A stretch of DNA of 64,000 nt from Escherichia coli (GTDB taxonomy: Bacteria > Pseudomonadota > Gammaproteobacteria > Enterobacterales > Enterobacteriaceae): NCBI RefSeq assembly GCF_041886205.1, contig NZ_CP169031.1, one strand, 5' to 3'. The notes below the pieces were generated by a model. That model ran no database searches, was not told where the DNA came from, and saw only the letters and a list, made by a program, of their open reading frames with translations. The position numbers and the translations under genes were made by a program. Shown here one piece after another: positions 23,880 to 44,235 of this stretch. The first letter of the stretch is position 1, and each line of letters opens with the position of its first letter.

Positions 23880-24488
23880 TTATCGTGGTGCCGATGATGC
23901 GATAGCCTGTATGATGTTATCAATATCGTTATCGTTCAGCATGAATATAGGTACACCATTAGAGTTTGCATTTTTTTCAGTGCTCATCAAACAAAGCCCC
24001 TCATACATGCCGCGAGTTTTTTTGAAATTGGCGACTGATGGAGTGGTGTAATTTCCTTTAAAGTGCATTCCGGCTGATTCATAAAAAGGAACCAAATCAG
24101 ACTGGCAAATCAAAGCGACCTCATTTGGAAATGCAAGTATTTCTGCCAGTATATTACTTCCAAGTCCATTACCACGATATTGCTCATATACATATATTTT
24201 ATGACAGTACAACGGAAAATTTCCCGATGGATGTCCGAAGATTAAGGCGTATCCGAACAAGTTTTCTTCATTAGTAAAGCCCATAATGCGCAAATGACCG
24301 GCTCGGTAACACTCTTCAAAAACGTTAATTATGTAGCTTCTCGCTGCTTTCAGCTCCTCTTCTGTCGGGAACATCATCAACCCCATAAGCGATGGAGTAT
24401 AGGCCAGATCCTGAAGAATCCCATTAGCTTCATTTTCGAAAATTAGCGGTAAGTGCGGTACAATTTCATTTGCCGAGGTATTAGACAT
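23880..24488 (-). CDS. GNAT-family N-acetyltransferase (accessory cargo)
   Basis: 202 aa; GNAT acetyl-CoA binding motif QYRGNGLGSNILAEIL and downstream PFYESAGMHF; AT-rich codon usage; 10-bp inverted repeat GAGTCCTTTG/CAAAGGACTC immediately upstream of start. Confidence 0.7.
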   Translation of the reverse strand: MSNTSANEIVPHLPLIFENEANGILQDLAYTPSLMGLMMFPTEEELKAARSYIINVFEECYRAGHLRIMGFTNEENLFGYALIFGHPSGNFPLYCHKIYVYEQYRGNGLGSNILAEILAFPNEVALICQSDLVPFYESAGMHFKGNYTTPSVANFKKTRGMYEGLCLMSTEKNANSNGVPIFMLNDNDIDNIIQAIASSAPR

Positions 24489-24686
24489 AGTATGGTGAGT
24501 CCTTTGTTTTCAAAGGACTCATGTTATCAGTGATAATCGTTTGTTGTAATAGTGTTGATAAAATAATTTTCTATTATGTAAGCAAGCTCATTTTTATGAC
24601 GGGTAATGCAAAAAAAATAGAATCAAAAAACTAAAAAATAATAATTCATGGGGTTTTACACCATCAAAAGTCCCCACTATAAATTA

Positions 24687-25328
24687 TTAGAAATAATTAT
24701 GCTTGCCTGTTAATACCCCTTTCGGCACTTTTTTTTGTTCCAGTGTCTGGGTACCCAGAATTATGTTAATAAGTGGACTTAGTAACGATGGTTCCTGGCG
24801 GGCTTCAACTTCTCCAGCCATTGCCCTGATGTAGTCGGCGCTGGCAACGTTGTTGTATTCCGTCGCAAAGCAACATAGTAATGTCAGAACATGCTCTGTC
24901 GTTATTTCGCTCCAGTTGATGTTGAAAAATTCATCGCCTTTTTTATCGTGTTCGGAATCGAAGATGCTTTGGTGGAGGATGTATTTGCCGGATTCCTTGC
25001 GCGGTAACTTGATCGCTTTCTGGCGTTCCAGCTCCTTGTAAATCTGCATTGCTTCAATCAGTACCGGCCTGCCGTTCATGAAGGGATCGCGCAACCTTAC
25101 ACGCTGGCCAACTCGACCAGTAATAAAGCTGTTTTCCTCTTCCACCAGCACGATAAAACCCTTTTCCTCTTTTTCTCGCAATTCGCGCAGCAGCTGGAGT
25201 TCCATGTCGCGGCGGCGTTCAGGGTAGCTGGTCCGCTCAGCCATTATCAGCTCGTTGTTGATCCATGCAGCAGTCATTGACGCCGGTTTGCCGACGCTCA
25301 TCGAAACAACGCATATTTTCTTATCCAT
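24687..25328 (-). CDS. Hypothetical protein (accessory cargo, partner of GNAT gene)
   Basis: 213 aa from ATG 25328 (track ORF starts at GTG 25355 inside the upstream terminator); AT-rich; no recognised motif. Confidence 0.5.
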   Translation of the reverse strand: MDKKICVVSMSVGKPASMTAAWINNELIMAERTSYPERRRDMELQLLRELREKEEKGFIVLVEEENSFITGRVGQRVRLRDPFMNGRPVLIEAMQIYKELERQKAIKLPRKESGKYILHQSIFDSEHDKKGDEFFNINWSEITTEHVLTLLCCFATEYNNVASADYIRAMAGEVEARQEPSLLSPLINIILGTQTLEQKKVPKGVLTGKHNYF

Positions 25329-25338
25329 AGCGCCCCTA

Positions 25339-25367
25339 CAAAAAAGAAAAGCCACCAGCGGCGGCTT
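25339..25367 (-). terminator. Rho-independent terminator downstream of ref
   Basis: Minus-strand AAGCCGCC-GCT-GGTGGCTT hairpin followed by TTCTTTTTT; ends ~10 nt before ATG of the 213-aa gene. Confidence 0.6.
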
Positions 25368-25516
25368 AGCAATACAACTGAAGGTAGCGCCCGGTACTCA
25401 GACTGTGCCGTCCATGGAATATTTGAAAAGGGATCCATCCGTACCGGGCGTGTGATGATTCTGACTCAAGTCACTTGTCAGTTGTCAATCATTTAAGATT
25501 AAAAATAATATATTTA

Positions 25517-26077
25517 TTAGTGCATAATGTTTGCCATTTCATAGGCGTCAGCCAGCAACTCCATCTCTGACTTGTTCAACAAGGTGAATTCTTTCTTGCC
25601 TCCTACCACGCCATCGGCATGAACAGGGACCAGCCAGGGGTATTTTTCTCTTACTTCAGCCGGTGCTGCATGCTGGTGGTGCCATCTGCAAAGGGGCAAT
25701 TGCTTTTTGTGACAACCCGGCGCGGTACGACCGGAGATATGGTGCAGAGACACCTCTTCAGATATTACTCCATGCATGTAGCAGGCAATGCAGGGGAGAG
25801 TGCCAAGAGCATTGGCGATAGTCTGTTCCTCCTCCGTCGGTGTTCGCCCCTTCAAGCCACGAGATTTTATTTTTACCGCACTTTTCCGCGTTTTGCTGGC
25901 TGGTGGGCGCTCTTTCTGTTTAGCGATACGGCGGTCGATAGAATCCCGCATTTTCTGATATTGCGATTCTCGCCAGGCGGGGTCAGCCAACTTTTCCCGT
26001 TGCCGAGCGATCGCTCGTTCTCTGGCTGCCTTCTGCCACTCGCGGCGCTGTTCAAGTTTTTGTTCGATTGTTTTCAT
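25517..26077 (-). CDS. ref: Ref, HNH-family recombination enhancement endonuclease
   Basis: 186 aa from ATG 26077 (track ORF extends upstream); basic N-terminus (MKTIEQKLEQRREWQKAARERAIARQREK) and HNH/zinc motif CIACYMHG...HHISGRTAPGCHKKQLPLCRWHH, as I recall for P1 Ref. Confidence 0.85.
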   Translation of the reverse strand: MKTIEQKLEQRREWQKAARERAIARQREKLADPAWRESQYQKMRDSIDRRIAKQKERPPASKTRKSAVKIKSRGLKGRTPTEEEQTIANALGTLPCIACYMHGVISEEVSLHHISGRTAPGCHKKQLPLCRWHHQHAAPAEVREKYPWLVPVHADGVVGGKKEFTLLNKSEMELLADAYEMANIMH

Positions 26078-26082
26078 ATGGC

Positions 26083-26108
26083 AAAAAAAAGGCGGCCTAA
26101 TGGCCGCC
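26083..26108 (-). terminator. Hairpin + U-tract immediately upstream of ref start
   Basis: Minus strand GGCGGCC-ATTA-GGCCGCC followed by TTTTTTTT, 5 nt before ref ATG. Confidence 0.55.
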
Positions 26109-26175
26109 AATGATGTCAAGGAGTGAAGTAATGGCAACGTCTTCGTAGTTGACAAAAACTGCGGCCAAATTATAA

Positions 26176-26192
26176 CAATCAATTAGAGCAAT
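26176..26192 (-). promoter_or_regulatory. C1 operator-like site upstream of ref
   Basis: CAATCAATTAGAGCAAT, 14/17 match to operator consensus (reverse orientation). Confidence 0.5.
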
Positions 26193-26324
26193 GGTAGATA
26201 TTTTGTTTCTCGCGAATCACATTTTTTCACTTCAGTACCTGTGTGCTATACTCCTTCTTGATTGATTGGATGCGGAATACAAACCCGCTCTTTTGTGCAG
26301 CCTGGCTCCTTGCCAGGCTTTTTT

Positions 26325-26639
26325 TTATTTCATCATGGAAGCTGTTAACGCTTTGGACCTTGCTGAACTGATTGAAAGGGCATTGTTTACCTTACCCAGG
26401 AGTTTGCCAAATTCCCCCATCACTCTAGTAAGCCCGCGCCGCGCTTCCTCCTCCGTTGCATTCATCACAAAATGTTCAGCACTCCGCATGCTTTTAACGG
26501 GGAACGCAACAGATATCGAGTCGATATCAGGCATCCTATCGCTCAACTTTACGGTGACAATGACAGATGGCGACAGAATATTAGTGCTTACAGACAGCAC
26601 TACATATTTTCCGTCGATGTTGAAATCCTTTCTCATATG
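26325..26639 (-). CDS. Hypothetical small protein between cre and ref
   Basis: 104 aa from internal ATG; operator-like site just upstream; coding status uncertain. Confidence 0.3.
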   Translation of the reverse strand, partial: HMRKDFNIDGKYVVLSVSTNILSPSVIVTVKLSDRMPDIDSISVAFPVKSMRSAEHFVMNATEEEARRGLTRVMGEFGKLLGKVNNALSISSARSKALTASMMK

Positions 26640-26652
26640 CCACCATAAATAC

Positions 26653-26669
26653 CAAAGAATTAGAGCAAT
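26653..26669 (-). promoter_or_regulatory. C1 operator-like site (weak)
   Basis: CAAAGAATTAGAGCAAT, 13/17 match; core ATTAGAGCAAT intact. Confidence 0.4.
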
Positions 26670-26686
26670 CATTTACGCGTTAATGG

Positions 26687-27718
26687 CTAATTGCCATCTT
26701 CCAGCAGGCGCACCATTGCCCCTGTTTCACTATCCAGGTTACGGATATAGTTCATGACAATATTTACATTGGTCCAGCCACCAGCTTGCATGATCTCCGG
26801 TATTGAAACTCCAGCGCGGGCCATATCTCGCGCTGCTCCGACACGGGCACTGTGTCCAGACCAGGCCAGGTATCTCTGACCAGAGTCATCCTTAGCGCCG
26901 TAAATCAATCGATGAGTTGCTTCAAAAATCCCTTCCAGGGCGCGAGTTGATAGCTGGCTGGTGGCAGATGGCGCGGCAACACCATTTTTTCTGACCCGGC
27001 AAAACAGGTAGTTATTCGGATCATCAGCTACACCAGAGACAGAAATCCATCGCTCGACCAGTTTAGTTACCCCCAGGCTAAGTGCCTTCTCTACACCTGC
27101 GGTGCTAACCAGCGTTTTCGTTCTGCCAATATGGATTAACATTCTCCCACCGTCAGTACGTGAGATATCTTTAACCCTGATCCTGGCAATTTCTGCTATA
27201 CGTAGCAGGGTATTATAAGCAATCCCAAGAAATGCCAGATTACGTATATCCTGGCAGCGATCGCTATTTTCCATGAGTGAACGAACCTGGTCGAAATCAG
27301 TGCGTTCGAACGCCAATGCCTGTTTTGCACGTTCACCGGCATCAACGTTTTCTTTTCGAATCCGCCGCATGACCAGTGAAACAGCATTGCTGTCACTTGG
27401 TCGTGGCAGCCCGGACCGACGATGAAGCATGTTTAGCTGGCCCAAATGTTGCTGGATAGTTTTTACTGCCAGACCGCGCGCCTGAAGATATAGAAGATAA
27501 TCGCGAACATCTTCAGGTTCTGCGGGAAACCATTTCCGGTTATTCAACTTGCACCATGCCGCCCACGACCGGCAAACGGACAGAAGCATTTTCCAGGTAT
27601 GCTCAGAAAACGCCTGGCGATCCCTGAACATGTCCATCAGGTTCTTGCGAACCTCATCACTCGTTGCATCGACCGGTAATGCAGGCAAATTTTGGTGTAC
27701 GGTCAGTAAATTGGACAT
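26687..27718 (-). CDS. cre: Cre tyrosine recombinase
   Basis: 343 aa MSNLLTVHQNLPALPVDATSDEVRKNLMDMFRDRQAFSEHTWKMLLSVCRSWAAWCKLNNRKWFPAEPEDVRDYLLYLQARGLAVKTIQQHLGQLNMLHRRSGLPRPSDSNAVSLVMRRIRKENVDAGERAKQALAFERTDFDQVRSLMENSDRCQDIRNLAFLGIAYNTLLRIAEIARIRVKDISRTDGGRMLIHIGRTKTLVSTAGVEKALSLGVTKLVERWISVSGVADDPNNYLFCRVRKNGVAAPSATSQLSTRALEGIFEATHRLIYGAKDDSGQRYLAWSGHSARVGAARDMARAGVSIPEIMQAGGWTNVNIVMNYIRNLDSETGAMVRLLEDGN: essentially the Cre sequence as I know it (last residue N here vs D in my recollection). Confidence 0.97.
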   Translation of the reverse strand: MSNLLTVHQNLPALPVDATSDEVRKNLMDMFRDRQAFSEHTWKMLLSVCRSWAAWCKLNNRKWFPAEPEDVRDYLLYLQARGLAVKTIQQHLGQLNMLHRRSGLPRPSDSNAVSLVMRRIRKENVDAGERAKQALAFERTDFDQVRSLMENSDRCQDIRNLAFLGIAYNTLLRIAEIARIRVKDISRTDGGRMLIHIGRTKTLVSTAGVEKALSLGVTKLVERWISVSGVADDPNNYLFCRVRKNGVAAPSATSQLSTRALEGIFEATHRLIYGAKDDSGQRYLAWSGHSARVGAARDMARAGVSIPEIMQAGGWTNVNIVMNYIRNLDSETGAMVRLLEDGN

Positions 27719-44162: not shown

Positions 44163-44235
44163 ATGCCCTCCTCATTGGACGAAAAAAATGCTGGTGGGAC
44201 GCACTCCACCAGCATTAAAAGTGACACTGTAACTA

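Follow-up and report, generated by a model that had tools for sequence, protein, structure and literature searches.

Intrinsic terminators directly ahead of the ref and mat start codons in a P1-family phage-plasmid: probable leader attenuators and a conserved mat leader RNA

The stretch of DNA analysed here (the window; 64,000 nucleotides (nt) of Escherichia coli contig NZ_CP169031.1) is, as judged by its sequence, a P1-family phage-plasmid in reversed orientation relative to the P1 record, with positions 24600-26700 matching phage RCS47, vB_EcoM-673R5 and P1 at 94-96% identity. The P1 annotation (AF234172), including its annotated or predicted promoters, was moved onto the window via gap-free alignments; this yielded, on the minus strand, the order cre (26687-27718), c8, the C1 operator Oref with promoter P2ref, promoter P1ref, ref, the operator Omat, Pmat/LPmat and mat (Table 1). 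Directly ahead of the start codons of ref, encoding a RecA-dependent nuclease, and of mat lie two hairpins, each followed by a U-tract, and these two elements, together with the leaders that contain them, are the subject of this report.

Table 1. Features of the ref-mat region, with positions given in window coordinates
Feature	Position	Strand	Description
Oref, C1 operator	26176..26192	-	ATTGCTCTAATTGATTG; overlaps P2ref -35; 3 mismatches to consensus; maps onto P1 "Oref"
P2ref promoter, C1-repressed	26169..26197	-	-35 26192-26197; -10 TATAAT 26169-26174 read directly; rest from P1 annotation
Leader 5'-terminal (U)GGCCGC, candidate antiterminator strand	26161..26167	-	complementary to 5' arm of ref terminator
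P1ref, predicted promoter	26110..26137	-	TTGCCA-16-TGaCATCAT; promoter scan and P1 annotation
ref leader intrinsic terminator (probable attenuator)	26083..26108	-	stem 26091-26108, U8 26083-26090
ref	25517..26077	-	186 amino acids (aa); RecA-dependent HNH nuclease; Pfam RecA_dep_nuc, E = 4e-48; P1 Ref
Omat, C1 operator	25509..25526	-	overlaps ref 3' end; from P1 annotation; 4 mismatches to consensus, so absent from consensus-search list
Pmat / LPmat	25458..25488	-	-35 TTGACA 25483-25488; -22 element AAGTGACTT 25468-25476; -10 CAGAAT 25458-25463; P1 annotation
mat leader 5' domain	25388..25450	-	63-nt three-way junction; RNAalifold, 16 sequences
mat leader intrinsic terminator	25340..25367	-	stem 25349-25367, U-tract to 25340
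Shine-Dalgarno AGGGG	25333..25337	-	contains G4 run 25333-25336, G5 in P1 reference
mat ("maturation control")	24687..25328	-	213 aa; MDKKIC start conserved

An earlier note, made from the sequence alone, had placed strong hairpin and U-tract terminators on the minus strand at 26083-26108 and 25339-25367; both are indeed there, with the adjective deserved by the ref hairpin and too generous for that of mat, which is of moderate strength. The ref stem (GGCGGCC-AUUA-GGCCGCC, 26108..26091) comprises 7 G-C pairs around a 4-nt loop and folds at -16.2 kcal/mol (z = -4.0; none of 200 shuffles folds as well), followed by U8 (26090..26083), 5 nt (GCCAU) and the ATG at 26077. The mat stem (AAGCCGCC-GCU-GGUGGCUU, 25367..25349) comprises 8 pairs (5 G-C, 1 G.U and 2 A-U) around a 3-nt loop, the hairpin alone folding at about -11 kcal/mol, and its U-tract, UUUUCUUUUUU, ends at 25340, with 11 nt that include the ribosome-binding site AGGGG leading to the ATG at 25328. 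As the note had argued, these gaps of 5 and 11 nt leave no space for a promoter between either terminator and its start codon. Both hairpins have the stem expected of intrinsic terminators (G+C-rich, about 5-12 base pairs (bp), with a loop of 3-8 nt), and a U-rich tract lies directly 3' of the stem only on the transcribed strand, the plus-strand reading of either hairpin being devoid of a T run. When both strands of the whole window were scanned for perfect stems of <= -8 kcal/mol with a T-tract, about 11 distinct sites were found, the ref and mat elements among them. Two of these (about 11) sites end within about 20 nt of a start codon, or three if one counts 44187-44216 (minus strand), a -18 kcal/mol hairpin between open reading frames (ORFs) of 420 and 168 aa, about 20 nt before a Shine-Dalgarno sequence, GAGGAGGG, and a TTG start; the chance expectation of a terminator near a start codon is, by our own estimate (roughly 70 genes with a 12-nt slot each), about 0.07. 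Among relatives, the mat stem is intact in 81/82 P1-like sequences and, among 46 unique sequences (67 loci), a single one departs from the ref stem, with one sequence carrying N's there set aside, and both hairpin architectures recur in diverged clades with other stem or loop sequences. From these sequence features we infer that the ref and mat hairpins are genuine intrinsic terminators that stop transcription in vivo.

Upstream of each hairpin lies a regulated promoter belonging to the gene that follows it. Oref is a C1 operator (14 consensus matches in the window vs. 0.34 expected), the consensus being a 17-bp asymmetric sequence, ATTGCTCTAATAAATTT, that overlaps the promoter, and equivalents of this operator precede ref in clades B, C and E as well. 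P2ref and Oref are situated about 60-90 nt upstream of the ref hairpin, with the P2ref transcript predicted to start at about 26162-26166. The -10 of P1ref ends at 26110, so that its start would fall at about 26103, within the 5' arm of the ref hairpin itself; the last base of this -10 is changed from T to A in 9/46 unique relatives and is thus less constrained than the stem. For mat, Pmat/LPmat is about 85-120 nt upstream of the hairpin with a likely transcript start at about 25451, and the palindromic -22 element and the -10 are kept in all five clades studied; a -10 coupled with a 9-bp palindrome near -22 is the hallmark of a late (Lpa-dependent) promoter of P1, and LPmat would accordingly depend on Lpa. 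Both terminators are therefore positioned between an annotated or predicted promoter and a start codon, as expected of attenuators. Since each hairpin sits downstream of its gene's own regulated promoter and directly before the translation start, we surmise that both are terminators within 5' leaders that act as attenuators, a reading to which we would assign a probability of roughly 0.65. The hairpins would block transcription that enters from units lying upstream and active in the lysogen (cre-c8 into ref; ref or cargo genes into mat) and would also damp their own promoters, with the result that ref, a harmful nuclease, and mat would be made only at high lytic initiation.

A simpler proposal is that the hairpins are insulators only, i.e. 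3' terminators of the upstream units (cre-c8; ref or cargo), with their closeness to the start codons reflecting a compact genome. This would fit the third such layout between co-directional genes at 44187-44216, the lack of a minus-strand terminator of c8's own before the ref leader, and the arrangement in clade B, where ref is directly followed by cargo genes running up to the mat leader. Nevertheless, we consider insulation as the only role improbable, as evidenced by: 1) the presence in every clade of the gene's own operator and promoter upstream of the hairpin, because of which the terminator necessarily acts on the gene's own transcripts too; 2) the linkage of the mat hairpin to mat and its leader, the whole leader module staying with mat as the upstream neighbor switches among ref, Tad2-like genes and higBA; 3) the presence ahead of the ref terminator of a complement that varies in step with it.

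The last point is best appreciated from folding of the ref leader. In the nascent P2ref leader, folded up to the 3' arm (-17 to -22 kcal/mol), the 5'-terminal (U)GGCCGC pairs with GCGGCC(A) and stacks on a GUCAAC/UUGAC hairpin, and the complete leader favours a 5' hairpin plus the terminator at -25 to -30 kcal/mol. These predicted folds are those of a classical kinetic choice between attenuator and antiterminator, in which the 5' end of the nascent P2ref transcript would pair with the 5' arm of the terminator, and the antiterminator so formed would compete kinetically with the terminator, while P1ref transcripts, starting inside the stem, would escape the ref terminator altogether. Within P1-type ref leaders, GCCGC is retained in most whereas the terminator loop and T-run vary. 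In clades C and E (L100/L282, L283, L284), the order of operator, TATAAT, leader of roughly 60 nt, terminator, U8 and, 13-16 nt later, start codon is kept with a different stem (GACGGUC-UUCG-GACCGUC); the predicted antiterminator of L100, the only clade C leader folded, pairs ACUGUCA with UGACGGU, and the ACUGUC segment recurs in the otherwise diverged leaders of L283 and L284. Since L100, L283 and L284 keep the complement of their different stem, the antiterminator strand appears to change along with the terminator arm across clades, which lends comparative support to an old model of ref attenuation. The clade B stem is different again (GCCGCC-UCCG-GGCGGC), and Ref homologues outside P1-like phages (47-49% identity) have no G+C-rich terminator. 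The ref half of our finding is real but already known: the title of a 1988 paper (Windle 1988) already states attenuator-antiterminator control of ref, and it is this result that we have rediscovered.

There is no ATG-initiated ORF with a ribosome-binding site in the ref leader. The ref frame extends without a stop through the entire leader (26078-26182, minus strand) to a TTG at 26182, giving rise to a spurious 221-aa ORF in mechanical ORF lists. The ref ATG is also without a Shine-Dalgarno sequence (26075-26090, minus strand), being preceded by U8-GCCAU alone, and the spacer variants of relatives (GACCAU etc.) never create one; initiation of ref translation may depend on the U-rich tract. 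As a C1-controlled lytic gene, ref is induced 73-fold in the lytic cycle and H-NS binds its regulatory region (PMC4713147); the H-NS nucleation motif CGATAAA described for the P1 ref region in that study reads CGAGAAA at window 26206-26212.

The expression logic of the earlier note has thus held up well. It had reasoned that these genes would need read-through, antitermination or a promoter embedded in the terminator, and for ref all three have a counterpart in the P1 annotation and literature (P2ref, P1ref and the 1988 title); its expectation of conditional expression agrees with the lytic induction of ref and with the C1 and late-promoter control of mat given by the P1 annotation and the title of Lehnherr 2001. 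What it missed were the promoters upstream of the hairpins and the structured mat leader, and the 213-aa gene that it took for cargo is mat, a conserved core P1 gene whose product is labelled "maturation control protein" across hundreds of database entries.

In the mat leader of roughly 125 nt, the 5' domain is followed by a variable linker, after which come the terminator, the ribosome-binding site and the ATG. We aligned 16 leaders from five clades, with Mat 56-100% identical, and obtained by RNAalifold a consensus in which the 5' domain is a three-way junction with a 10-bp closing stem (25441-25450 with 25388-25397) beginning 1-5 nt downstream of the predicted LPmat start, an inner hairpin (UGGA/UCCA), a small hairpin (GGC/G(U/C)C) and a conserved core, UUCCAUGGACGGCAC; the linker of 8-30 nt varies in length and sequence, and the terminator appears as an 8-bp stem with its U-tract. 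Four pairs of the closing stem are changed on both sides (e.g. U-A/A-U to U-A/G-C or C-G/G-C), and several variants form G.U pairs, which hold on the mat-sense strand alone. Overall, 98.5% of the cells pair vs. 37-46% when the partners are slid, and the number of double-sided changes observed was not attained in any of 500 shuffles. Every clade retains the terminator, loops and stem lengths being changed in clades B-E, and even a metagenome homologue of 40% identity has GCCGCC-UCCG-GGCGGC followed by U5, 27 nt before the ATG and behind a 5' closing stem. Within the P1 clade, nucleotide diversity of the leader is 0.003-0.012 (0.008 in the 5' domain) as compared with 0.136 at third and 0.026 at second codon positions of mat. 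A covariance model built from the leader alignment recognized exactly one copy in the window (142 bits) and confirmed no further copy, scans of viral_contigs and genome_contigs with the core returning known loci or chance hits; the 40%-identity Mat homologue (P0066) had no relatives in viral_contigs. Rfam 15 gave no match over 25326-25454 at E <= 1, and over the ref leader and c8-ref spacer it gave sub-threshold, small-RNA-shaped matches only. The searchable literature, which excludes key P1 papers, yielded no account of the mat leader and nothing relevant on start-site mapping, 3'-end mapping or small RNAs of P1. Provisionally, the mat leader is thus a conserved and apparently undescribed RNA, absent from Rfam and the P1 record, of modest novelty.

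To view this stretch as a leader, one has to contend with the P1 record, where no terminator or leader is annotated and the start of Mat is an ATG corresponding to window 25438, 111 nt farther upstream, which yields a protein of 250 aa and places the hairpin inside the coding sequence. If this were correct, the window would be frameshifted, having one G fewer than P1 (G4 vs. G5, 25333-25336), which splits the frame into ORFs of 46 and 213 aa. The two ATGs are in frame in 34/82 P1-like sequences, and clade B (L082) is in frame too, with a gene call of 247 aa. On the other hand, the two ATGs are separated by 109, 110, 111 or 112 nt across the same 82 sequences, leaving 48/82 out of frame via several independent indels; the upstream frame of some clade C phages (L086-L088) meets a stop after just 20 codons; the conserved core is read in three different frames across three clades; and the upstream ATG is located within the conserved stem, about 13 nt from the predicted transcript start, with no ribosome-binding site, as opposed to the MDKKIC start, which has a ribosome-binding site ahead of it and is invariant among Mat homologues down to 40% identity (213/210 aa). 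Public gene calls for mat vary (213, 250, 251 or 262 aa), and the Mat PHROG profile has 212 positions. Because indels break the frame, the core is read in three frames, homologues are 213/210 aa long and the profile spans 212 positions, the stretch upstream of the 213-aa ATG is, on sequence grounds, leader and not obligate coding sequence, and we regard a 250-aa Mat as very improbable.

What the terminator of the mat leader does by default is suggested by folding of the leader. In nascent-RNA folds of five clades, the 5' arm of the mat terminator was unpaired and the 5' domain folded alone, with no alternative helix; since no competing fold engages the terminator arm, termination would be the default. 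Pmat/LPmat transcripts would begin with the independently folding three-way junction, followed by the variable linker and then the terminator, and default termination would leave a short leader RNA of about 110 nt, so that only molecules extending past the terminator could serve for translation of Mat; read-through may be simple leakage or may be helped by some factor acting on the 5' domain. The most economical reading of mat is that of a constitutive leader attenuator that ends incoming transcription and limits Mat to the read-through fraction of Pmat/LPmat transcripts. Several other schemes were rejected. A riboswitch-like leader does not agree with a structured domain and terminator that do not overlap and form no alternative helix; leader-peptide attenuation of the trp type is contradicted by an upstream ORF conserved in neither frame, length nor sequence; and pairing of the linker with the Shine-Dalgarno sequence, plausible for the P1 clade, is not conserved across clades and was not adopted. 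As to the protein itself, Mat belongs to no Pfam family and only to PHROGs of unknown function, its AlphaFold2 model is poor (mean predicted local distance difference test (pLDDT) of 47), and the only match of a profile search against solved structures, to Thermotoga NusG domain II, is not significant (E = 0.3) and was discarded as evidence for an antiterminator protein.

The strong conservation of the 5' domain, unpaired bases included, argues that this domain does something specific, be it protection of the 5' end, protein binding, a direct action on polymerase like that of the put RNA of phage HK022, or service as a small RNA like IsrK. One such option would be that the mat leader is the gene of a trans-acting small RNA of about 110 nt, targeting other phage or host messages or its own read-through isoform, with mat riding on read-through. 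Small RNAs typically have such a modular succession of promoter, 5' domain, A/U-rich linker and terminator, there is no switch-like fold, the extreme conservation extends to unpaired bases, and IsrK provides a prophage precedent (PMC4825925). However, the element is never found apart from mat, and its conserved loop has no convincing target in the 64-kilobase window (1 weak site vs. 0.86 expected); likeness to Hfq-type small RNAs or those derived from 5' untranslated regions is one of architecture only, and we deem this option unlikely. Another would be that the 5' domain is a cis-acting antitermination RNA, either put-like or a protein-binding riboregulator, that makes polymerase resistant to the terminator. 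The domain does start about 1-5 nt from the predicted transcript start, folds alone (-27 to -29 kcal/mol) and always precedes the terminator, and, with no RNA-only switch, any regulation would need a factor or a direct effect on polymerase. Against this, the domain resembles no Rfam family and is a closed three-way junction, whereas put consists of two adjacent stem-loops, and sequence analysis gives no sign of an interaction with RNA polymerase, all of which makes this option quite improbable in our judgment. We speculate more broadly that the mat leader represents a new RNA family of P1-like phage-plasmids, in which the three-way junction decides passage of the terminator through a protein (possibly Mat), in a put-like manner, or as a small RNA directed at its own read-through isoform; this is a possible but tentative proposition. 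If it is true, "maturation control" of P1 would be gated at the RNA level, and the reference P1 Mat would be mis-annotated at its N-terminus.

Returning to the attenuator reading of both leaders, five observations weigh against it: 1) the mat hairpin, taken with its flanks, is energetically unexceptional (z = 0.37), and because its energy does not stand out, the case for it rests on conservation; 2) some clade C phages (L086-L088) have a mat stem with one mismatch, which weakens it; 3) the low diversity of the mat leader could partly reflect recombination history and not selection; 4) no ref antiterminator is predicted for clade B in nascent-RNA folds; and 5) the ref terminator of L099 is about 100 nt from the ATG.

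Additional features were noted around the two leaders. Upstream of the ref leader, 26224-26326 on the plus strand has a promoter-like extended -10 site (TTTTCA-17-TGcTATACT) and then a strong terminator (26299-26319) with T8 (-16.2 kcal/mol, z = -3.8), which together would yield a transcript of about 65-70 nt running antisense to the c8-ref spacer and the stop of c8; this segment is nearly invariant in the 46 unique P1-like sequences, has nothing annotated in the P1 record, and has only a sub-threshold Rfam match (SorX-like, 22.6 bits). The best promoter match of the region (TTGTCA-16-AATAAT, 10/12), at 25482-25509 on the plus strand, overlaps Omat and the Pmat -35 and is directed into ref, antisense to the gene; because the first strong plus-strand terminator that the scan gave downstream of it is that at 26299-26319, a C1-controlled antisense-ref transcript is conceivable from the sequence. 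A further hairpin (45746-45773) is found between two inverted C1 operators (45733-45798). The difference in cargo from P1 adjoins mat, with a 202-aa GNAT acetyltransferase-like ORF (23880-24488, minus strand; Pfam Acetyltransf_10/1; PHROG 10454, function unknown) replacing the type III restriction-modification genes res/mod, and in diverged P1-like phages (L082, L086-L088, L094-L096) the ref-mat interval is a site of cargo insertion, occupied by Tad2-like or Sequestin-like genes, higBA and other small ORFs.

As a model phage, P1 stands for a very large group of phage-plasmids carrying resistance and defence genes, of which it is the prototype. In its reference genome, the start of mat, an essential gene that is biochemically unknown, is corrected here to give a protein of 213 and not 250 aa, and the strongly conserved, covarying mat leader RNA ending in a terminator provides a testable handle on the low and timed expression of Mat.

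Among known systems, the closest is the ref attenuator of P1, and it is this very element that the window carries; from the P1ref -10 through the hairpin, U8 and ATG the two sequences do not differ, and the c8-ref spacer has a mean column identity of 97%. The 5' end of the P1 leader is GAGCCGC vs. UGGCCGC in the window, and the predicted antiterminator is accordingly at -17.5 kcal/mol in P1 and -21.8 kcal/mol in the window. For mat, the operator, the -35, -22 and -10 elements and the gene are the same as in the P1 mat region (Lehnherr et al.), with the comparative data presented here favouring the 213-aa ATG over the annotated start. As in the trp, pyrBI and T-box attenuators and terminator riboswitches, an intrinsic terminator is placed between promoter and start codon in both leaders, with ref also having a predicted, mutually exclusive antiterminator helix; in contrast to trp-type attenuators, neither leader has a conserved leader peptide, and that of mat has no alternative helix or overlap between domain and terminator. 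In the Gifsy-1 prophage of Salmonella, IsrK has its own terminator that is partly read through, yielding both a short RNA and an mRNA of the downstream genes (PMC4825925). The mat leader is predicted to share this logic of read-through, with no sequence or structural relationship to IsrK. The put RNA of the temperate phage HK022, a structured element of about 65-70 nt, is promoter-proximal and lies ahead of terminators. The mat 5' domain is alike in size and position, differs in being a closed junction, and would act on polymerase purely by analogy.

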